Part shown: positions 810-30,208 of the stretch, one piece after another | Numbering within the stretch: the first letter of the stretch is position 1 | How the letters are laid out: each line of letters starts with the position of its first letter | From: Trichodesmium erythraeum IMS101 | Lineage (GTDB): Bacteria > Cyanobacteriota > Cyanobacteriia > Cyanobacteriales > Microcoleaceae | DNA: 32,000 bases | NCBI RefSeq assembly: GCF_000014265.1 | Contig: NC_008312.1 | Location: 1,500,001 to 1,532,000, forward strand | Direction of reading: 5' to 3' | The notes under the pieces: generated by a model | Database searches by the model: none | Told to the model about the DNA's origin: nothing | The model's input: only the letters and a program-made list of their open reading frames with translations | Translations under genes and position numbers: made by a program

Positions 810-1446
810 AGATTAGATACTAATATTTGTTTATTTTTGGTAGTTATAGATCAAAATTATTTGGAATATATTTGAAAATTTAAACGAGATTATAAACTAC
901 TAAAAAGAGAAATCTAAAGTTATCAAGATAACCATAGTTTTAATCTAAATCAACTTTTGATGAAATGGTATTATAAAGGTCAAAACTATCAAAGTTATAC
1001 AGATTTTTTGTTGGCATTTAAGTAAATGTGAGAAGAGTAAAAAAACTCTAAATTTATAAAAAAATTACTGTGGAAAGTTATAACTGTGAGTCAAGCAAAG
1101 CCTATTCCTAAAAAATGTGGCGCACCGAGGGTATCAACTATTGCGTATGTTAGAATAATATTAAATATTACAAAAATTACAACCTATATTCCGTGCCACA
1201 AATATAATGCAAAAGTATTTTTAAGGCATAATTTGGGTTATAGCCTCTTTTCTTACTAAAAACTATTAATAGTCTATATAAGATTTATTTTTGCTTACAA
1301 AATTTATAGTTATTATCAGACAAGGCTTTCAATGGTTAACTTTAAATACTACGTTTTAACATGGGGAATATAGCTTAAAACTTAGAATTAATTATATTTA
1401 AGTTTTTTCTGAATAATGAAGTCTAACTCATTGATAGTGAATAATC

Positions 1447-2566: not shown

Positions 2567-2662
2567 CAGTAAAAACAGTAAAATAAATTGTGATAATGTT
2601 AGGACTTAATTGAGTAACAGTACAAAAAAGGTTAGTTAAATCTCTCTAAACACAGCACTGTA

Positions 2663-3307
2663 CTATAATTTTTTTGATAAGGTATCTGTTAATTTATCTG
2701 CTATTCCTGAAATCCAATTTTCATCTTGTTTAGTGTAACTGCGAGGTGCATTTGCACCCAAGATCATTACACCATTATTGCCAAGAGGTTGACAAATTAC
2801 ACCTTGGGTATTTTCTGGCAAATAATTAAACTCAATGCGACCTGGATAAACTTTTAAATCTACTAAATAAATAGGTTTTTGCTTACCCAAAACTTGCTTT
2901 AAAATAGTTCCTGGCTTGATGTATGATTCAGATGGTAAAATTCCTCTTCTTAATAAGACCTTCTCTTGATGCCAGATAATAACAGTCTTAGTAACTGTAT
3001 TAGTTAGTAGTAAACTAGAAGCCCAAGCTAGTTCAGTTTTGACTATCTCTGATAATTCTGGCAATAATTCAAATTCTGATTTACCAATTAATTTGACAGT
3101 ATCAGGAGAGCGTGGTTGTATTTGTTGCCAAAGTAAACCAGTCAAAATTAAAAAAGCACTTAAAATTACTCCTACTACATCAGAACGAGTTTGGGAAGCT
3201 AAAAGATTAGGGGTGAAAAATCTATTAGTCATAAGTAAAGTTGCACCTAATCCTCCTGCTATTATAGGAAGCATTCGTAATACTTTATTTTGGTCAGATT
3301 GACTCAT
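2663..3307 (-). CDS. Cofactor assembly of complex C subunit B-like protein (CCB2/CCB4-type, DUF2930; cytochrome b6f heme ci attachment)
   Basis: Intact 214 aa ORF. The N-terminal membrane segment and the motifs SQTRSDVVGVILSAFLILTGLLWQQIQPR, ELAWASSLLLTNT, LYPGRIEFNYLPENTQGVICQP and GANAPRSYTKQDENWI match my memory of this cyanobacterial family. Confidence 0.75.
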   Translation of the reverse strand: MSQSDQNKVLRMLPIIAGGLGATLLMTNRFFTPNLLASQTRSDVVGVILSAFLILTGLLWQQIQPRSPDTVKLIGKSEFELLPELSEIVKTELAWASSLLLTNTVTKTVIIWHQEKVLLRRGILPSESYIKPGTILKQVLGKQKPIYLVDLKVYPGRIEFNYLPENTQGVICQPLGNNGVMILGANAPRSYTKQDENWISGIADKLTDTLSKKL

Positions 3308-3430
3308 ATTTTAAGGAAGACAAAAGAACGTCTTTACAGCTATTAGTTGTCAGTTATTAGATAATCAAAACCCTAGTTTCTAGTTACTAATAATTAGTTA
3401 ACCTTTGAATAGATAACTTTAACTATATTA

Positions 3431-3506
3431 AGACTTACAAAGAAACCGGGTTATGAGAAGTAATTATGGCAATAGACCTAGTTTCTTGTTTGGGTACATA
3501 AGTCCT
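3431..3506. repeat. MITE-like short element with imperfect terminal inverted repeats (AGACTTACAAAGAAAC ... GTTTCTTG..ACATAAGTCCT), just 3' of rpaB
   Basis: Inverted termini are visible in the sequence. The terminus is related to the GCGTAAGTCCT motif seen elsewhere in the window. Confidence 0.4.
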
Positions 3507-3513
3507 GTATATT

Positions 3514-4245
3514 TCAACCAACTTCATCACGTTCAATAATTCGTTGAAATAGATAACCAGTGCCTCGTGCAGTTAAAATCAATTCTGGGTTACTTGGATC
3601 TTCTTCCAACTTAGCCCTAAGCCTAGAAATATGAACATCCACTACTCGCGTATCTACATGACGCTCTGGAGTGTAACCCCAAACTTCCTGCAAAATCTCA
3701 GAACGAGAAAAAGGCTCTCCAGAACGACTTACCAATAACTCTAATAAACTAAACTCCATACCAGTTAGTCTAATTCTTTCATCACCTTTATAAACCTGAC
3801 GTTTATTAGTGTCAATTCTAATAGTGCTGACTTGAATAACACCAGAACTAGGAATACCATTACCACCATTTTTATCGACCCGACGTAATACAGAACGAAT
3901 TCTTGCTTCTAATTCTTTTGGAGAAAAAGGCTTCACCACATAATCATCAGCACCTAATTCTAGACCTGTAATTCTATCTGCAACATCTCCCAAAGCAGTT
4001 AGCATAATTATAGGAATATCTGATTCTTTGCGTAATTCTTGGCAGACACCATAACCATCTAATTTTGGCATCATCACATCTAATACCACCAGATCTGGGG
4101 TTGTATTGTGAAAAGTCTCCAAAGCTTCTTCACCATCAGCAGCAGTAACAACATCATACCCAATCATTGACAGTCGAGTTTCTAAAATACGACGAATACT
4201 TGCTTCATCATCAACAACCAAGATTTTTTCTTTATTATATTCCAC
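3514..4245 (-). CDS. rpaB: OmpR-family response regulator RpaB (Ycf27)
   Basis: Intact 243 aa ORF. KILVVDDEASIRRILETRLSMIGYDVVTAADGEEALETF...DLVVLDVMMPKLDGYGVCQELRKESDIPIIMLTALGDVADRITGLELGADDYVVKPFSPKELEARIRSVLRR is near-identical to RpaB orthologues as I remember them. It has a C-terminal winged-helix domain. Confidence 0.9.
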   Translation of the reverse strand: MEYNKEKILVVDDEASIRRILETRLSMIGYDVVTAADGEEALETFHNTTPDLVVLDVMMPKLDGYGVCQELRKESDIPIIMLTALGDVADRITGLELGADDYVVKPFSPKELEARIRSVLRRVDKNGGNGIPSSGVIQVSTIRIDTNKRQVYKGDERIRLTGMEFSLLELLVSRSGEPFSRSEILQEVWGYTPERHVDTRVVDVHISRLRAKLEEDPSNPELILTARGTGYLFQRIIERDEVG

Positions 4246-5371
4246 TTTTTCTCACACTCCTTAACTAAGGTTTATAATTATATTAATTTTTTTAACTGTA
4301 TCATCAAAATAACAACAAAAATTACTATTTTTTACTACTCCTAAGCTTGGAATTAGTTGAACTTTAGGATTAAAGTTAGGGGGGAGGGTGACAAAAAGGT
4401 TAAAAAGCCTTATTTATCAAGGATTAACCAAAACATGATTAAAAAATACGAGCCTAGATCTTGTTAACAAGGCTTATTTAATAAAAATTAATAAACTACC
4501 TTTATCCTACCATAAACATTTTAAAAGTCAATTAAAATTCAATGTTTGGTTAATGTTGAAAGTTTTGATTGCTATAATTAAAGAACACCGATAGATACGT
4601 TAAAAAACTCTGGCCAACCAAATCCCAAAATATATAAAATTTGAGAGCTGTTGTCCTGCTATGGAAAGGTTTTTATAATGAAAAATACTAAGATTTAAAA
4701 CTTTATAGTTTCCAATTTTAAAATCTTGGGTTAAATAAAACTTTGAAGCTAGGGAAATACTGACAATTATGATAAATATAAAGCATAAAATTGCGTAAAC
4801 TTACTAGTAATAAGCCTAATTTATAACTCTCGTATTAGACCAATTGAAATTACTATTTTTGACTAAAAAGTAATAATAATATTAGGGTAAGTCAAGAATA
4901 TTTATCTAGTTTTTTAGCTTTATTTTGTAATTTCTAAAAAGTAGTTTTAGGGAATAGATAATTTTGTAGTATGTAACTATATGAATTTTCAAAAGGTCAA
5001 GAAAAGACGTATTGTTGTTTGAAATTGAAAAAAAGCTTGGATATAAAAATAAAAACATAACTGTGTATAGCTCTAAAATAATTAGAAATAAAACCGGGGA
5101 TATTTATATATTTACAATGAATACAAATCACTAAAATTAAGTTTTTTACTGATAAATATTATCGAAAATAGAATATAAAATATAGATATAATATAGCAAA
5201 AGAGGCATAATTTATACTAAAAAAATCTGGAATTTATAAATAACAATAAATGTCTCTAAAAAATGAATAGATATTCAATAAATATTCTAGTATTTTAATA
5301 AAGGTATAATTTGGAAGGAACTAAAGTCAAAGGTGAAGGATTAATTTCCATCACATTATTGATAAATTTTG

Positions 5372-5648
5372 CTGACTTTTAATCCTTAATTGTTGGAAAA
5401 ATAACTTGTCAAAAAGGACTAGCAAATCATGTCAATTGTTCAATCGAAAAAGGAAGAAAATATCGACGACATAGCCATTTTTATACAGGAAATAGAGGTC
5501 AATCTTGGTTAAATTCCTTATTCATGTTTGCAGAATAAGTGGAGAATTTGATGGCCAATTACTCTGAAAAACAGCTCAATTATTAGACAGGTAGAAAAGC
5601 TGCAAACCATGTTATGTGAGCTTTTTAGTCTTACCTGTCACCTCTCCA
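5372..5648 (+). repeat. Left copy of a roughly 277 bp inverted repeat flanking radA; it ends about 45 bp upstream of the radA start
   Basis: The reverse complement of 8396-8672 aligns along the whole length at roughly 85% identity by eye. One example is AGGTAGAAAAGCTGCAAACCATGTTATGTGAGCTTTTTAGTCTTACCTGTCACC against its partner. Confidence 0.85.
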
Positions 5649-5692
5649 GGGATTTTTTATATTTGGTGGTGAACATTAACTTATTTTAAGAA

Positions 5693-7246
5693 ATGCCAAA
5701 ACACAAAACAAAGTATGTTTGTAGAGAATGTGGGTATGAGTCTACCCAATTTCTGGGCAGATGTCCTGGATGTAATACTTGGAACTCTCTAAAAGAGGAG
5801 ATAGAACAAACAACTGTAACTGCTTTACAAAGGCTGGGAATAACTGATATTGGTATTGGTTCTCAAGCATCTGAGGGAGATGATTCTTCTGGTCAACCAA
5901 GAGCATCTTTTTTACTATCTCAGATTTCTGACCAAACGTTGTCTAGAATGCCTTCTGGGTTTGAAGAGTTAGACCGAGTGCTTGGTGGTGGAATTGTTCC
6001 TGGTTCCTTGGTGTTAATTGGTGGAGAACCTGGTATTGGTAAGTCTACTCTTTTATTACAAGTAGCTAATCAGTTGTCTAATAGATGTCGGGTTTTGTAT
6101 GTTTCCGCGGAAGAGTCTGGACAGCAGGTGAAGTTACGTTCCCAACGTTTAATTGTTAACTTTAATGAAGCAAAAGTAGAGCATAAGGATAATGTTTCAA
6201 ATGTTGAGATCGATCAGGATTTATCTAATGATGAAAATCAAGAAAATTATGGCAATTCTGAACCTATAAATGATTCTACTACAGATTCAATGGAAAATTT
6301 ATTTTTATTGCCAGAAACAGATTTAGAAGTAATTTTAAGAGAGTTGGAATCTCTAAAACCATATCTAGCAGTAATTGACAGTATTCAAACTATCTATTTT
6401 GCTTCTTTGACTTCCGCTCCTGGTTCGGTTGCTCAAGTCCGGGAATGTACTTCAGCATTAATGCAAGTGGCAAAGCGGGAAAATATTACTTTATTAATAG
6501 TTGGTCATGTAACTAAAGATGGTGCTTTAGCAGGTCCTCGTGTTTTAGAACACTTGGTAGATACGGTTCTATATTTTGAGGGCGATCGCTTTGCCTCCCA
6601 CCGTTTGTTGCGCTCTATGAAAAATCGTTTTGGTGCTACTCACGAAATTGGAGTATTTGAAATGGTGGCTAATGGTTTAAAAGAAATATTAAACCCATCA
6701 GAATTATTCCTCGGAAGTAGGGATGAGTATTCTTCTGGAACTTCTACAGTTGTTTCAATGGAAGGTACTCGCCCCATAGTTGTAGAAATTCAAGCTTTAG
6801 TAAGTCCGGCAAGTCATGGTTCCCCTCGACGTTCTACTACTGGAATTGATGGTAGTAGATTACAACAAATTTTGGCAGTTTTGGAAAAACGGGTAGGCAT
6901 TCCTTTATCAAAGTTAGATACTTATGTGGCGACTGTGGGAGGTTTGAGTGTGGAAGAACCTGCTGCAGACTTGGGGATAGCTATTGCTGTGGTGGCTAGT
7001 TTTCGCGATCGCGTAGTTGACCCCCGAACTGTTTTACTGGGAGAGGTCGGTTTGGGTGGACAAGTGAGACCTGTATCTCAGTTGGAGTTGAGATTAAGGG
7101 AAGCTGCTAAGTTAGGTTTTAAAAGGGCAATTATTCCCAAAGGTCAGCAACCCATGGATTTAGGAATGCGTATTTTGCCTATTGCTAAGGTCATAGATGC
7201 AATTATTGCTGCTATTCCGGCCCAACCTCCTACCATGGAGAATTGA
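5693..7246 (+). CDS. radA: DNA repair protein RadA (Sms)
   Basis: Intact 517 aa ORF with an N-terminal C4 zinc finger (CRECGYESTQFLGRCPGC), Walker A GEPGIGKST, the KNRFG motif and a C-terminal Lon-protease-like domain. It contains two HIP1 sites. Confidence 0.95.
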   Translation: MPKHKTKYVCRECGYESTQFLGRCPGCNTWNSLKEEIEQTTVTALQRLGITDIGIGSQASEGDDSSGQPRASFLLSQISDQTLSRMPSGFEELDRVLGGGIVPGSLVLIGGEPGIGKSTLLLQVANQLSNRCRVLYVSAEESGQQVKLRSQRLIVNFNEAKVEHKDNVSNVEIDQDLSNDENQENYGNSEPINDSTTDSMENLFLLPETDLEVILRELESLKPYLAVIDSIQTIYFASLTSAPGSVAQVRECTSALMQVAKRENITLLIVGHVTKDGALAGPRVLEHLVDTVLYFEGDRFASHRLLRSMKNRFGATHEIGVFEMVANGLKEILNPSELFLGSRDEYSSGTSTVVSMEGTRPIVVEIQALVSPASHGSPRRSTTGIDGSRLQQILAVLEKRVGIPLSKLDTYVATVGGLSVEEPAADLGIAIAVVASFRDRVVDPRTVLLGEVGLGGQVRPVSQLELRLREAAKLGFKRAIIPKGQQPMDLGMRILPIAKVIDAIIAAIPAQPPTMEN

Positions 7247-7273
7247 TATTTTTTTGTTAACAGGAATAAGGAA

Positions 7274-8395
7274 GAAACAGACTATGTTTTTTATAATCAG
7301 CACCCCAAATGTAGGGATTTGTAGTTTTTTTGTATTCTTTTGGAATGCGCAATAGTTAAATATTTTGTTGGTTTGTACTAAAGAAGTATATATTGAAACA
7401 GACTATGTTTTTTATAATCAGCACCCTAAAGGTAGAACTTTGTAGTTTTTTTGTATTATTTTGTACTATTCTGGAATGCGCAATAGTTAAATATTTTGTT
7501 GGTTTGTACTAGAGCGGTGGAAGCTACCAGAGGTGACAGGTAAGGCTAAAAAGCTAACATAACATGGTGTGTTGGTTTGTACTAAAGAAGTATATATTGA
7601 AACAGACTATGTTTTTTATAATCAGCACCCTAAAGGTAGGGCTTTGTAGTTTTTTTGTATTATTTTGTACTATTCTGGAATGCGCAATAGTTAAATATTT
7701 TGTTGGTTTGTACTAGAGCGGTGGAAGCTACCAGAGGTGACAGGTAAGGCTAAAAAGCTAACATAACATGGTGTGTTGGTTTGTACTAAAGAAGTATTGA
7801 AACAGACTATGTTTTTTATAATCAGCACCCTAAAGGTAGGGCTTTGTAGTTTTTTTGTATTATTTTGTACTATTCTGGAATGCGCAATAGTTAAATATTT
7901 TGTTGGTTTGTACTAAAGAAGTATATATTGAAACAGACTATGTTTTTTATAATCAGCACCCTAAAGGTAGAGTTTTGTAGTTTTTTTGTATTATTTTGTA
8001 CTATTCTGGAATGCGCAATAGTTAAATATTTTGTTGGTTTGTACTAAAGAAGTATATATTGAAACAGACTATGTTTTTTATAATCAGCACCCTAAAGGTA
8101 GGGCTTTGTAGTTTTTTTGTATTATTTTGTACTATTCTGGAATGCGCAATAGTTAAATATTTTGTTGGTTTGTACTAAAGAAATAAGCTGATTAGGTGAC
8201 AGGTAAGGCTAAAAAGCTAACATAAATGGTGTGTTGGTTTGTACTAAATAAGTATATATTGAAACAGACTATGTTTTTTATAATCAGCACCCTAAAGGTA
8301 GGGCTTTGTAGTTTTTTTGTATTATTTTGTACTATTCTGGAATGCGCAATAGTTAAATATTTTGTTGGTTTGTACTAAAGAAATAAGCTGATTAG
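7274..8395 (+). repeat. Tandem array of 7 units with starts at 7274, 7395, 7599, 7799, 7930, 8061 and 8261. Short form is 121-131 bp; long form is about 200-204 bp and carries an extra segment of about 70 bp.
   Basis: GAAACAGACTATGTTTTTTATAATCAGCACCCTAAAGGTAGGGCTTTGTAGTTTTTTTGTATTATTTTGTACTATTCTGGAATGCGCAATAGTTAAATATTTTGTTGGTTTGTACTAAAGAAGTATATATT recurs head to tail. Confidence 0.95.
7306..7331 (+). terminator. Hairpin (CAAAT-GTAGGG-ATTTG) plus T7 tract about 60 bp after the radA stop; likely the radA intrinsic terminator and the first copy of the element repeated through the array
   Basis: Stem, loop and T-run can be read directly. The stem is short (5 bp, AT-rich). Confidence 0.45.
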
Positions 8396-8672
8396 GTGAC
8401 AGGTAAGACTAAAAAGCTAACATAACATGGTTTGCAGCTTTTCTACCTCTCTGATAATTGAGCCGTTTTTCATTTTCATTGGCCATCTACTCCTCTGCTT
8501 CCTCTGCAAACATGAACCAGGAATTGAACCAAGATTGACCTCTATTTCCTGCATAAAAATGGCTATATCGTCGATATTTTCTTCTTTTTTCAGTTTTATA
8601 ATTCACATAATTTACTACTCTTTTTTGACAAGTTATTTTTTCAACAATTAAGGATTAAGAGTAAGCTTTTGC
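8396..8672 (-). repeat. Right copy of the radA-flanking inverted repeat, embedded in the tandem array
   Basis: Reverse-complement match to 5372-5648. The track ORF 8427-8651 lies entirely inside it and is probably not a gene. Confidence 0.85.
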
Positions 8673-8678
8673 TGAATC

Positions 8679-8760
8679 ATAGTTAAATATTTTGTTGGTT
8701 TGTACTAAAGAAGTAAGAAAGAAAGAGGCTATGTTTTTTATAATCAGCACTCTAAAGGTT
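8679..8760 (+). repeat. Truncated, diverged array unit distal to the right inverted-repeat copy
   Basis: ATAGTTAAATATTTTGTTGGTTTGTACTAAAGAAGT...CTATGTTTTTTATAATCAGCACTCTAAAGG matches the unit consensus. Confidence 0.7.
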
Positions 8761-9308
8761 TTGCCAATAGTTCCTAATACTAAGTGTAATAGATATTTGT
8801 GACAAATAGGTAGAATATTTTTTAATAATTAAAAACTTAATACTCACAACTTAGGATGAATTGCTTCGGTCTCATTTCTGAGTTTATAGCTGATATTTTT
8901 AGTCAAAGGGATATCTCATCTAATACTAAGTTTAATAAATTTTTGCTGCAAATAACTAGGGAATTTTTGAATAAGAATTCAGGTATCTAAAACCCAGTGA
9001 TCAAGAGATTTATGAAAACGATTCACTGATTAATTTAACAGTCTTATTGTCAATAATTAGGAAAATAAAGGCTTATAGGCATCGAAAAATTGAAAATAGG
9101 ATTTTGAAGGAAGTTGTCAGAAATACTCATCCATCAAAATTTATAGGCTTTTCCATAGGACCTGAATTTTTACAAAAGCATAGACACTTGAGATACTAAG
9201 ATAAATGACTTTCCCTAACTCCATTATCTCGCTTTAAGAGATTCTTTTGTTATCAAAGCAGTTTTTTTGATTGAATATATAATAGGAAATAATTTATTTT
9301 TACGAAGA

Positions 9309-10748: not shown

Positions 10749-11475
10749 GGGAATTGAAACACAATCTACAGGTGAGGTTATAGGACTCAAGTATTTCCTA
10801 GCTGATTAGTCAGCAAACCCATATAATTTGCTAATTCCTATATATAGAGTTTTTTTCAAATTCCACATAAATGTGAAAGGGTTGCTCAAGAATTTGTACT
10901 TGTCTAAATCTATATCTGATGTAGGTTTGTCTAGATTTCAGGAATGGCTAGAATACTCTGGATATAAAAGCGGTTGGGTGTTGCTAGTCAAGTACACCAA
11001 TGAGATTATAATTCTACCACTAAAATATTTTCACCATTTACTCTGTAGGTCATTTAGTCAATCAGCGGTTGGGTGTTGCTAGTCAAGTACACCAATTGAG
11101 ATTATAGTCCTACCACTAAAATATTTTCACCATTTACTCTGTAGGTCATTTACTCAATCATATGCTGTAAGGTTTGAGAAATTAACAGTGTGAGTATTAC
11201 CTAACTACATATCTCAAGACTGTCCAAAGTGTAAAGGCAGAATAAAAAAAATCTCTATCAACTCGTATCCATGTTTGGCAATGTGAGTATATTGAAGACA
11301 GGGATATAGTGGCTAGCCTAAACATTCTGCAAAAAGGACTTAGTACTGTAGGGCAGATGGGAACTTACCCTTGAGGAGAAACTCCCTCTTAGCCGATTTT
11401 GATTGGGGCAAACCTGCTCCCTAAGAGGTAGTCGCAGAATCAAGATTTCCCTTGCCAATAGGTTCGCAGAGCGTT
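10749..11475 (+). pseudogene. tnpB: TnpB (IS200/IS605-family OrfB) pseudogene with internal deletion, stops, a 95 bp tandem duplication and a remnant of the 3' guide-RNA (omega RNA)/right-end region
   Basis: Fragments TGEVIGLKYFLAD, NVKGLLKNLYLSKSISDVGLSRFQEWLEYSGYK (RuvC-II region), and SQDCPKCKGRIKKISINSYPC...RQGYSG.PKHSAKRT.YCRAD (zinc-finger/RuvC-III region with stops), followed by the usual ...NQE-like tail. Confidence 0.7.
10970..11160 (+). repeat. Tandem duplication, 2 units of 95 and 96 bp, inside the TnpB pseudogene
   Basis: GCGGTTGGGTGTTGCTAGTCAAGTACACCAAT(T)GAGATTATA.T.CTACCACTAAAATATTTTCACCATTTACTCTGTAGGTCATTTA.TCAATCA occurs twice head to tail. Confidence 0.9.
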
Positions 11476-14702: not shown

Positions 14703-17700
14703 TCAAGTTTCCATTATCTGAATAATTTTCATAGTTTCGACACTAACATTATCAACTTTTTGTAGTAGGTCAATAACTGTTTCTTTATAGTTAGCAAAAC
14801 AATAAGTATCAAATTTTTCAGTGATGGTTTTATCTTTAGACTTTTTCTCTTTATATTGATCTAATACCCACTCCAAAGCACTCCGGTTTCCGAGGCAATA
14901 TTCCCAGGCAATTTTGGGAATTTTTTCTAATATTGTCAAAGTATCTATAAAGATTTTGTGGTTATTTTTATCTACTTTAAATTTTGTTTTGGGAGTGGGA
15001 AAGTTATCGGGAGTTGGTAAGTTAATGCGAGTCAATAAAAAAGGTTTAATATTTTCATAATTGATGTGTACTTCGATTAATTTTTTTTCCCATTTTACCC
15101 ACTGTTTAAAATTTTCATAGAAGGGGAGTCAGGGAAATTTTTTTTTGAGATAAAGTTCGTATTTTTGGCGGTAAGTGGGGTAGTGTAAAACGGCGTAGGT
15201 GTAGTAGAAAATATCGAGTTTTTTGATTTTTTTTATTGTTGTAATTAGATTGAAATTTTTGGATACTCCAGTCACTAATATTGTCTTGGTGCCTTCCTTT
15301 TTTGTTTTAATAGTAGAGAGTAAATATATTTTACCCACTGTTTAAAATTTTCATAGAAGGGGAGTTAGGGAAATTTTCGTTTGAGATAAAGTTCGTATTT
15401 TTGGCGGTAAGTGGGGTAGTGAAAAATGGCGTAGGTGTAGTAGAAAATATTGAGTTTTTTGATTTTTTTTATTGTTGTAATTAGATTGGAATTTTTGGAT
15501 ACTCCAGTCACTAATATTGTCTTGGTGCCTTCCTTTTTTGTTTTAATAGTAGAGAGTAAATATATTTTACCCACTGTTTAAAATTTTCATAGAAGGGGAG
15601 TTAGGGAAATTTTCGTTTGAGATAAAGTTCGTATTTTTGGCGGTAAGTGGGGTAGTGAAAAATGGCGTAGGTGTAGTAGAAAATATTGAGTTTTTTGATT
15701 TTTTTTATTGTTGTAATTAGATTGGAATTTTTGGATACTCCAGTCACTAATATTGTCTTGGTGCCTTCCTTTTTTGTTTTAATAGTAGAGAGTAAATATA
15801 TTTTACCCACTGTTTAAAATTTTCATAGAAGGGGAGTCAGGGAAATTTTTTTTTTGAGATAAAGTTCGTATTTTTGGCGGTAAGTGGGGTAGTGTAAAAC
15901 GGCGTAGGTGTAGTAGAAAATATCGAGTTTTTTGATTTTTTTTATTGTTGTAATTAGATTGGAATTTTTGGATACTCCAGTCACTAATATTGTCTTGGTG
16001 CCTTCCTTTTTTGTTTTAATAGTAGAGAGTAAATATATTTTACCCACTGTTTAAAATTTTCATAGAAGGGGAGTTAGGGAAATTTTCGTTTGAGATAAAG
16101 TTCGTATTTTTGGCGGTAAGTGGGGTAGTGAAAAATGGCGTAGGTGTAGTAGAAAATATTGAGTTTTTTGATTTTTTTTATTGTTGTAATTAGATTGGAA
16201 TTTTTGGATACTCCAGTCACTAATATTGTCTTGGTGCCTTCCTTTTTTGTTTTAATAGTAGAGAGTAAATATATTTTACCCACTGTTTAAAATTTTCATA
16301 GAAGGGGAGTTAGGGAAATTTTCGTTTGAGATAAAGTTCGTATTTTTGGCGGTAAGTGGGGTAGTGAAAAACGGCGTAGGTGTAGTAGAAAATCTTGAGT
16401 TTTTTGATTTTTTTTATTGTTGTAATTAGATTGGAATTTTTGGATACTCCAGTCACTAATATTGTCTTGGTGCCTTCCTTTTTTGTTTTAATAGTAGAGA
16501 GTAAATATATTTTACCCACTGTTTAAAATTTTCATAGAAGGGGAGTTAGGGAAATTTTCGTTTGAGATAAAGTTCGTATTTTTGGCGGTAAGTGGGGTAG
16601 TGAAAAACGGCGTAGGTGTAGTAGAAAATCTTGAGTTTTTTGATTTTTTTTATTGTTGTAATTAGATTGGAATTTTTGGATACTCCAGTCACTAATATTG
16701 TCTTGGTGCCTTCCTTTTTTGTTTTAATAGTAGAGAGTAAATATATTTTACCCACTGTTTAAAATTTTCATAGAAGGGGAGTTAGGGAAATTTTCGTTTG
16801 AGATAAAGTTCGTATTTTTGGCGGTAAGTGGGGTAGTGAAAAACGGCGTAGGTGTAGTAGAAAATATCGAGTTTTTTGATTTTTTTATTGTTGTAATTAG
16901 ATTGGAATTTTTGGATACTCCAGTCACTAATATTGTCTTTGTGCCTTCCTTTTTTATTTTAATAGTAGAGAGTAAATATTTGAGATCCTCTTGAACCTAT
17001 TCCACCATCACAAACAGTATTTGCTGCTTGAACAAAAAAGGAAACTTGATTGTGAATTGTTAAACAAATTGCTACATTATTTTTGACAATAATAAAAATT
17101 TGTTCCTGTTGATATAGTTTGTGTAGGATAGTTTTTGCCAGATAAAGATATTTTTTGGTAAGCGGACATTAAGTAGATGTAACTATAAAATCAGAATTAA
17201 ACTTTAGGCTAGAATTTCTCAGTAAATGCTCTTATAGTTCAGAAGTATACTTAATTTTTCTATCAAAAAAATCATTAATTACTGTTTTATTATTTGATTG
17301 ATTCCATCTAACTCTTTTTTGTTCATAAAACTTACAAAAAAACTGAACTTTTTCTGCTAATTGCTGTCTATCGAAGTCGTATAACCATTCATCTCTATTT
17401 GTTGCAATTCCTAATATAAATACTTTAAATATTGCTATTTCGCCTGTTTTGCTTTTAGCAAGTCTAGTATTTTTATCAGCTATAGGTAATAAATTATTAA
17501 AGTCATTATCTGTGAGATTTATCCAGTTATTATTTTTGTCTGCTTGAATATTTTCAAAATCAATTTTACTAAATTTAGTTGCTGCTAAAAATTGGAATTT
17601 ATTCTCTCTTAATTCGTGCATAGGAAATAGATGACTGTAATATATTAGATTTCCTACTGTTTTTTCTTGACCATCCTTAAGCAAAAAGGATACAACAATT

Positions 17701-29560: not shown

Positions 29561-30208
29561 ATATATGCTACAGTAACGCGGGTAAGATGCCTGCAGTACA
29601 TAATTTTTACCATTTATTTTGTACATCATTTGCCCAAAATATGGTATGAGTCAATCATCACTTACAACTTTAGAATTTGAATCTCAAACCAAATGGAAAA
29701 TTGAAGAATTTCACGCCAGAATTAAATAATTAACAGGTTTAGGACGTATGCAGGGTGATGTTTGGGGAGAATAAAAAAAATTTTATGGCTTGTACAATGG
29801 AGCGTAAGTCCTGTTTGAAAAAAATTTGCACATAAATTTCGACAAGAGTATTTATCAAGAGTTGCTACTAATTATTATCAAAATATCTGGCCTCCGAATT
29901 GAAATATTCTTTAATTAAAATGAAGCAAATTTTTACTGGAATAACTAAAGTTTTTTTTTGAATAAAAATAGTTAAGCATTCGCTCCAGGTTGGGGCTTGC
30001 GTTATCCCATAAAGTGGAGCATGAAGATCGCGCCTTTTTTTGTCATGCACTATATATAGTGTCTTTGCGTAAGTCCTATATTTATCATATTTTGTTTCAT
30101 CTCAATTTCTCAAAAGTCTCTTCCAAAAGCTTTCCCATACTTAGTCTGAGCAGGAGAATATATTTATCCAGTTTTTACTGGTCATCAGCAGCTTCTCTTA
30201 TTCTCTAA

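Follow-up and report, generated by a model that had tools for sequence, protein, structure and literature searches.

A tandem array 3' of radA in Trichodesmium erythraeum, traced by homology to the promoter and opening codons of an excisionase-family gene now lost

Where does a tandem array of short non-coding units directly 3' of radA come from, and do its units still work as transcription units? We addressed this question in a 32,000-nt stretch of genomic DNA from Trichodesmium erythraeum IMS101 (NC_008312.1, positions 1,500,001 to 1,532,000; hereafter the window; GC content ~30%), in which seven head-to-tail units of 121-204 nt each occupy positions 7274-8393, between radA and a dTDP-glucose 4,6-dehydratase gene. 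An earlier sequence-only reading had described this array and suggested that each unit is a small RNA (sRNA) gene with its own promoter and terminator; the array itself is real and consists of seven units and a partial eighth copy. From sequence comparison with relatives we regard its origin as secure: the array is an orphan promoter with the 5' stub of an excisionase-family gene since lost, tandemly amplified and situated at an inversion junction. The full reading that we favor, in which this promoter and stub were amplified, the units keep a working core promoter and each gives rise to a short non-coding transcript, has in our estimate a probability of about 0.6.

Origin of the units

Unit 1 begins 27 nt further on from the radA stop codon (7244-7246), and the array holds two cores that are identical in every unit and in the partial eighth copy (CTATGTTTTTTATAATCAGCAC and TAAATATTTTGTTGGTTTGTACTA). 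Sister taxa, whose loci were reached through RadA homologues, have no array at this place. Instead, the radA 3' spacer of four sister loci contains a single stretch 73-79% identical to the unit, directly before a gene encoding 141-181 aa (Table 1). Scanning metagenome contigs with a degenerate form of the box TATTCTRNNATRCGCAATAGT gave 18 matches, of which 8 are due to chance and 10 are true homologues, and in all ten of the latter the box stands directly 5' of the ATG of a gene encoding M-x-x-GTTEAASLLSISAQRVRVL. Overall, 14 independent single-copy loci have the box directly 5' of where an intact HTH_17-like gene starts, the product of which begins M-x-x-GTTEAASLLSISAQRVRVLLKEGRIQG. Family signals for this helix-turn-helix (HTH) protein are weak but consistent (HTH_17, 3e-5; TIGR01764 (excise), 0.003; excisionase phrogs). 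The family has 58 detectable members, and the named ones belong to Dapis, Okeania, Trichodesmium and neighboring cyanobacteria; T. erythraeum is absent among the named-source matches, with many matches carrying no source name.

Alignment shows that the extent of a unit is that of a ~125-nt upstream block followed by codons 1-7 of the HTH gene, with homology ending past codon 7. The conserved 5' region of the intact genes (e.g., that of the gene at L014 5385-5930, product P0135) contains three 10-bp-phased TTTGTA-type repeats and a GAAGCACCC block, and the units share with it this upstream block, the repeats, the box, the hexamer plus 8 nt plus start, and the first seven codons. They differ from it in that the open reading frame (ORF) is cut past codon 7, and in that at least seven copies stand in place of one. 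The intact genes read ATG CTT GTT GGT ACT ACT GAA over these codons; the relic start codon is TTG in T. erythraeum units, whereas the units of a related metagenome-assembled genome (MAG), MAG_R01, keep ATG. With two HTH proteins as queries, tblastn found no HTH ORF in the window or in L001. The unit core, searched as an exact 20-mer, had only a chance match, in Pedobacter, among 185,579 reference genomes, where the source locus is apparently not searchable.

The sequence-only reading had offered a simpler alternative, namely an amplification of the radA terminator region. However, the HTH gene is multi-copy in the clade and also occurs, with its box, away from radA. The whole ~125-nt block accompanies it at three loci where radA is not upstream (L036, L040 and L042, with 0.9-4.4 kb of upstream sequence), while two further HTH genes away from radA carry the box with a different upstream sequence (L029 and L043). 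The block therefore belongs to the HTH gene and not to the radA 3' end, and the terminator alternative falls. Moreover, the block is missing 3' of radA in the Okeania radA loci L023-L025.

An inversion is evident from gene order. Dapis, Okeania, MAG_R02 and MAG_R04 carry in sequence dehydratase(+), CCB2(-), response regulator(-), radA(+), [HTH(+)], hemA(-), glpX(-), and T. erythraeum, ALOHA_ZT_67 and MAG_R01 carry glpX(+), hemA(+), ..., CCB2(-), response regulator(-), radA(+), array, dehydratase(-). The CCB2-response regulator-radA block is therefore inverted in T. erythraeum, ALOHA_ZT_67 and MAG_R01, and the inversion is seen at about 2640-7250 of the window in comparison with L012, L014, L023, L027 and L028. 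The spacer between the response regulator gene and radA measures about 165 nt in the other arrangement and about 1.3 kb in the inverted one. With this block inverted, no HTH gene is left in the window, and what stays after radA is only its promoter and stub.

MAG_R01 (L022) has three diverged units 3' of radA, on a contig that ends inside or just past the array and stops 474 nt past radA. These units show the same junction (stub ... AAGAAATAAGAAAGAAACAGAC ...) as the eighth copy of T. erythraeum, with ATG intact. As this junction type is common to both lineages, the first duplication is older than the divergence of T. erythraeum and MAG_R01. Expansion to at least seven units in T. erythraeum followed, presumably by unequal recombination or slippage between units. 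The flanks of the array are 97.6% identical between the window and L022, and the units only 80-85%; the differences cluster in the stub end and junction, in a segment that reads ATAATCAGC in one lineage and ATCTAAAGC in the other, and in the hairpin described below. The derived ATAATCAGC variant is present in 8/8 T. erythraeum copies, which indicates concerted evolution.

A 273-nt element was later inserted into the array, and three units took up its end by co-amplification. The ~70-nt inserts of the three long units are copies of the inner end of this element, and each insert rejoins the unit at a GGTTTG common to both (microhomology). The right copy of the element and an inverted left copy bracket radA and the array, the GTGACA-N16-TAACAT end facing radA in both. 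A short inverted repeat (CATGGTTTGCAG ... CTGCAAACATG) lies inside the element, whose ORFs are not shared by the two copies; the element may be a dispersed repeat or one resembling miniature inverted-repeat transposable elements.

Two side observations concern the same spacer and its surroundings in relatives. Between radA and the HTH promoter block, Dapis and MAG_R04 share an 89%-identical non-coding block (L014 5173-5365; L012 8032-8228) with CACTTCCCACAC inside it, a good terminator-like hairpin (CCCTAGACTAGGG plus T8-9) at its end and no Rfam match; it could be an unannotated small RNA gene. Its last ~15 nt are the sole part that survives in the array units. Furthermore, Dapis BLCC M229 and related contigs carry one or two tandem duplicates of the first ~120 radA codons (the Zn-ribbon part) 5' of the full gene, a further case of local tandem duplication at this locus.

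Promoter core, hairpin and T-run

The promoter that had been proposed for every unit was the pair TCTGGA-N16-TATTTT, read as sigma70-like -35 and -10 hexamers. The pair is exact in six units, among them the example with boxes at 8005-8010 and 8027-8032, and has one mismatch (TTTGGA) in unit 1; at no more than one mismatch it occurs eight times, seven of them in the array, versus 0.56 expected by chance. The box TATTCTRNNATRCGCAATAGT likewise matches exactly in six units and nearly so in unit 1. Homology to the 14 intact loci confirms that each unit contains a promoter region but gives no support to the hexamers chosen. The proposed -10, TATTTT (TATTAT in MAG_R01), overlaps the ATG of intact genes, which places TCTGGA at about -26 to -21, and the pair scores below 9/12 positions and so goes unlisted in a simple sigma-70 scan. 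A resemblance of TCTGGA to the heterocyst DIF motif TCCGGA had also been pointed out. The units carry TCTGGA or TTTGGA, not TCCGGA, and T. erythraeum forms no heterocysts, so that the DIF analogy has no biological footing.

The intact loci point to another hexamer. Every one of them shows a -10-like hexamer (AATAGT, TATAAT, CATAAT, TATAAC or TAGAGT), exactly 8 nt, and then ATG; the distance from the end of the box to ATG is 8 or 20 nt. Because the ATG follows only 8 nt past the box in many intact genes, transcription should start at or 1-2 nt before it, and by the same spacing the -10 element should be the hexamer that lies within the box or directly behind it. Given its place before the ATG, the box is thus the core promoter of the HTH gene. 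The corresponding arrangement in the units is AATAGT, TAAATATT and TTG in T. erythraeum, with ATG in place of TTG in MAG_R01, so the transcription start would lie near the relic TTG. That each unit carries a promoter region is therefore well supported, by homology and by position in intact orthologues and not by resemblance to hexamers or strength of consensus.

This region is also the part of the unit that has changed least. Across units of the two array-bearing lineages, T. erythraeum and MAG_R01, the 27-nt promoter core shows 0 differences versus 14-33 in 95-107 other columns (Fisher p = 0.0002-0.02). Over the ~60 nt between the T-run and the relic start, the ten units of both lineages show no substitution except for T/C at one position in a GTA(T/C)TATT repeat, and the only further difference in this stretch is a 10-bp indel that corresponds to one copy of the phased repeat. 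In contrast, the rest of the unit differs by 15-30% between units.

The phased TTTGTA repeats are conserved in all single-copy orthologues, and include the T7 run and, in units 2-7, GTA-N8-TAC; the extended motif GTA-N8-TAC-N21-TAAAT occurs six times. One might imagine an array that acts as DNA, in which an HTH_17 paralogue, an OmpR-type regulator or NtcA would bind the repeats and box as operators while the seven copies would form a sink or architectural element. The three to five GTA-containing repeats at 10-bp phase in all taxa, the exactly 10-bp indel between unit forms, GTA-N8-TAC in six units and the fact that the invariant DNA is the promoter/operator part would suit such a role. Nevertheless, we judge it very unlikely: the binding protein is only hypothetical, with T. 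erythraeum absent from the named-source HTH family matches (many matches being unnamed), the spacing of the NtcA-type motif to a TAN3T -10 element is off (N25 to TATTTT, N15 to AATAGT), and GTA-N8-TAC easily arises by chance in DNA of 30% GC. For the same reason of non-canonical spacing to any TAN3T, an NtcA-type promoter in the six units was rejected, though it stays a lead. We likewise rejected a minus-strand promoter (TTGCGC-N17-AATAAT), which matches at 8/12 positions only, lacks a terminator on its strand and is oriented at odds with the homologous gene. Read on the reverse strand, the TACAAA repeats may resemble the RpaB HLR1 motif.

The second half of the proposed sRNA gene was a hairpin followed by seven T. 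Its position at 8093-8118 and its sequence had been given correctly, as had the CAAAT/ATTTG stem of unit 1 and the G-T pair of the unit at 7930. The motif resembles a Rho-independent terminator in having a short inverted repeat, 3 nt and then seven T, but its stem is weak and A-U-rich rather than stable and G+C-rich, with four or five pairs that, depending on the variant, amount to only -2.3 to +1.0 kcal/mol. Another hairpin, CCCTA/TAGGG, 8 nt from the T-run, is mostly preferred by the minimum-free-energy fold, and it is also what the terminator-like matches of our scan represent. CCCTA/TAGGG (-5.8) was itself rejected as a terminator, being absent in 4/10 variants, broken in several units and in Dapis, and displaced from the T-run. 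Moreover, the putative ~84-nt transcripts show no folding advantage over dinucleotide shuffles (z = +0.3 to +1.1).

Compensatory change in the stem had been inferred from unit 1, and the sequence-only reading had itself named stem substitutions that fail to preserve pairing in a larger alignment as evidence against the locus that it proposed. Such an alignment, of the distinct unit variants from 15 assemblies together with orthologues (n = 15), gives exactly that result: the inner pair is GC in two, UA in two, GU in one and unpaired in the other 10. The outer three or four pairs (A-U or G-U) are nearly invariant and hence uninformative, and the covariation score of the stem, reached by 362-406 of 500 shuffles, is not above chance. 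The hairpin and T7 are also present 5' of single-copy HTH genes, within the conserved 5' block. We thus found no credible case for a stable, conserved terminator in the unit, and the hairpin and T7 are best read as part of the upstream promoter region and not as a dedicated sRNA terminator.

Transcription of the units

Under the reading that we favor, transcription in each unit would start 1-2 nt before the relic TTG, a codon that follows the -10 hexamer AATAGT after 8 nt. The transcript would be short and non-coding, made of the stub and the junction into the T-rich block of the next unit (T6 ~45 nt and T7 ~85 nt in), and termination at these T-runs would probably be leaky because no stable hairpin precedes them. 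The core has stayed unchanged while the rest of the unit drifts, and T. erythraeum transcribes tandem repeats heavily; for these reasons the units on balance probably still initiate transcription. Short, near-leaderless non-coding transcripts from each unit are plausible.

A precedent in this organism is the most abundant non-coding RNA (ncRNA) of T. erythraeum, which comes from a >6-kb, 7-unit transcribed tandem array in IMS101 with one experimentally demonstrated transcription start site (TSS) per unit (Pfreundt et al. 2014; PMC4143802). Both are non-coding tandem arrays whose units include a partial duplicate of a neighboring gene. However, the units of that array measure 736-973 bp and give ~260-nt RNAs, against 121-204 bp and predicted RNAs of about 85-160 nt here. 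Its duplicate is the 3' part of an extant gene, whereas that of the radA array is the 5' end and promoter of a lost one.

Several points weigh against this reading. AATAGT is an imperfect -10 element, preceded by a weak -35 region (TTTTGT or TTTGTA). Four box positions differ between the array lineages and the intact genes (GGAATG vs GCTATA), so that the promoter could be dead. Concerted evolution within arrays complicates the argument from conservation, which draws on two array-bearing lineages only. Copy numbers in other strains, being taken from short-read assemblies, are unreliable, and true variation cannot be read from them: other T. erythraeum assemblies have 2-5 units, gaps of Ns within the array, or contigs that end just past radA, as the array is real but short-read assembly collapses its copies. 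The differential RNA-seq study of IMS101 omitted RNAs <300 nt (PMC4143802). Finally, a one-step inversion with one breakpoint in codon 7-8 fails to account for the second, single HTH promoter-block copy at 1095-1212 (-). A profile made from the alignment of units and orthologues finds in the window this copy, the seven units and the stub at 8679, and no more. We note separately that the right flank of the copy at 1095-1212 resembles the arrangement in MAG_R04.

If the promoters are dead, the array might be an inert by-product of recombination, that is, a minisatellite-like amplification at the inversion junction of a repeat-rich genome, with no specific transcription or function. We consider this unlikely, yet a rival to be taken seriously. 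It would agree with a rearrangement junction flanked by the 273-nt inverted repeat, with three other tandem arrays in the window, with the decay of the start codon to TTG and the four changed box positions, and with a copy number that varies from 2 to 7 among assemblies. However, ~60 substitution-free nucleotides in ten units of two lineages, against 15-30% difference elsewhere, would be unexpected under uniform neutrality, an objection that concerted evolution and the small sample weaken in turn.

At the other extreme stands the proposal of the sequence-only reading, a multi-copy locus for a trans-acting sRNA in which every unit yields a discrete ~85-nt regulator and copy number is selected for dosage, as with NsiR1. 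The promoter in each unit by homology, the invariance of its core after the loss of the gene that it served, the retention of the array in two lineages, and the precedents of the 7-unit T. erythraeum array (PMC4143802) and of NsiR1 (PMC6596454) all speak for such a locus. Nonetheless, we find it unlikely. The would-be RNA body changes faster than anything else in the unit, the A-core (ATAATCAGC vs ATCTAAAGC), the stem and the junction included; it has no stable or covarying structure, no credible terminator and no Rfam match. Moreover, apart from the array itself, the stub at 8679 and the copy at 1095-1212, no additional copy of the module turned up in the window or among the fetched loci, and the long units would yield different RNAs. 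A specific regulatory role of the RNAs, unsupported by conservation or structure of the RNA body, is accordingly doubtful. Quite unlikely, in our estimate, is also an sRNA family born from the dead gene, in which, once an inversion had taken away the regulator, a constrained promoter and seven-codon stub were amplified to at least seven copies that supply a dosage-tunable, near-leaderless RNA with a body evolving in concert.

The proposed link to NsiR1 could be examined directly. A cmscan of the whole window against Rfam 15 (4227 families, the inclusion of an NsiR1 model not having been separately verified) gave no match at gathering score; at E <= 10, the interval 7100-8900 gave two chance eukaryotic matches only and no relevant family, and the orthologous loci L012 and L014 gave nothing relevant. 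NsiR1, as summarized in PMC6596454, forms a tandem array of sRNA genes in heterocystous cyanobacteria (Ionescu et al. 2010) and resembles the radA array in its intergenic head-to-tail direct repeats, in a promoter of its own for each unit (here inferred) and in a copy number of the same order. By the Rfam result the two show no match in sequence or structure, and they differ in host, the present array coming from a non-heterocystous one. They also differ in position, 3' of radA here and 5' of hetF for NsiR1. Furthermore, TCTGGA does not stand at -35 once the start is set by the intact orthologues, no credible terminator follows, and the array at radA is traceable to a protein gene, from which it took promoter and 5' stub.

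Small proteins offer another conceivable product, in the form of 39-50-aa hydrophobic ORFs reading MFFIISTLKVGLCSFFVLFCTILECAIVKYFVGLY that recur in units 2-7. Their ATG is absent in MAG_R01 units (CTAGG or CTAAT), which have no equivalent ORF; the ORF of unit 1 stops early, no Pfam match was found, and the ORF spans the promoter of the next unit. We rejected this reading for its lack of conservation in MAG_R01 and of a Pfam match, and consider its probability negligible.

About 40% of the Trichodesmium genome is non-coding, and much of this is transcribed from repeats of unknown origin. For the array at radA the origin is readable, as a promoter and 5' stub left after gene loss at an inversion junction and subsequently amplified. 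Should the units fire, the array would document a route from the promoter of a dead gene to a multi-copy ncRNA, and provide a natural system for asking whether copy number follows dosage needs among strains. If they are silent, it would be a cautionary case of a promoter-like box and a hairpin with T-run in every unit without an sRNA locus.

Coordinates and neighboring repeats

The positions of all features are collected in Table 1. The RadA protein encoded next to the array is also identical in T. erythraeum MAGs.

Table 1. Features of the radA array and related loci. Positions are those of the window unless a locus is named.
Feature	Position	Strand	Remarks
radA, 517 aa	5693..7246	+	ORF and Pfam domains; protein identical to IMS101 ABG50345.1
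Unit starts (GAAACAGAC)	7274, 7395, 7599, 7799, 7930, 8061, 8261	+	periods 121, 204, 200, 131, 131, 200 nt
Unit 1, 121 nt	7274..7394	+	upstream form 10 bp shorter; TTTGGA replaces TCTGGA; CAAAT/ATTTG stem as in Dapis
Unit 2, 204 nt, long form	7395..7598	+	~73-nt insert (about 7512-7568) from inner end of 273-nt element
Unit 3, 200 nt, long form	7599..7798	+	insert as in unit 2 (about 7716-7772)
Unit 4, 131 nt, canonical short form	7799..7929	+	
Unit 5, 131 nt, G-T stem variant	7930..8060	+	
Unit 6, 200 nt, long form	8061..8260	+	second insert type; flank GATTAGGTGACAGG matches right-hand element copy
Unit 7, ~133 nt	8261..8393	+	continues straight into 273-nt element
Partial eighth copy	8679..8760	+	core promoter end, stub, junction, start of next block; ancestral junction AAGAAGTAAGAAAGAAA, also in MAG_R01
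Segment within array unit, GTTGGTTTGTACTAAAGAAGTATATATTGAAACAGAC			
Invariant promoter core (example), TATTCTGGAATGCGCAATAGTTAAATATT	8002..8030	+	by homology to 14 intact loci
Other promoter-core starts	7467, 7671, 7871, 8133, 8333; variant at 7336	+	
Inferred -10, AATAGT	8017-8022	+	then 8 nt, then relic TTG at 8031
10-bp phased TTTGTA repeats (~3 copies, example)	7973..8005	+	5' of core promoter; period 10 (Tandem Repeats Finder)
Relic HTH codons 1-7 (example)	8031..8051	+	TTG TTG GTT TGT ACT AAA GAA
Further relic starts	7365, 7496, 7700, 7900, 8162, 8362, 8692	+	
Hairpin and T7, TAAAG-GTAGGG-CTTTG-TAG-T7	8093..8118	+	-2.0 kcal/mol; about -70 to -45 from inferred start of next unit
273-nt element, right copy	8394..8666	+	inserted in array; first 40-70 nt co-amplified into units 2, 3, 6
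273-nt element, left inverted copy	5371..5643	-	88% identical; ~50 nt 5' of radA
Second single HTH promoter-block copy	1095..1212	-	far side of inverted segment; no HTH ORF beside it
Single-copy homologue	L014 5285-5416		Dapis BLCC M126
Single-copy homologue	L012 8142-8247		Trichodesmium MAG_R04
Single-copy homologue	L027 3913-4032		
Single-copy homologue	L028 3901-4033		Trichodesmium MAG_R02
radA 5' duplications	L026 4191-4958; L027 1812-2174; L039 ~6707-7051		

Other tandem repeats occur in the window. One, at 15092-16979, is an array of 8 x 236 nt whose units are 91-99% identical and show a strong G-over-C skew; a promoter/terminator scan of it did no better than shuffles, and it has no Rfam match. 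Another, of 3 x 296 nt (72-96% identical), lies in the spacer 5' of the CCB2 gene at 1558-2565, close to the second HTH promoter-block copy. Lastly, a 96-nt unit is present in two tandem copies at 10969-11160, between the dehydratase and PGA_cap genes, and has a weak third match at 29577-29640.

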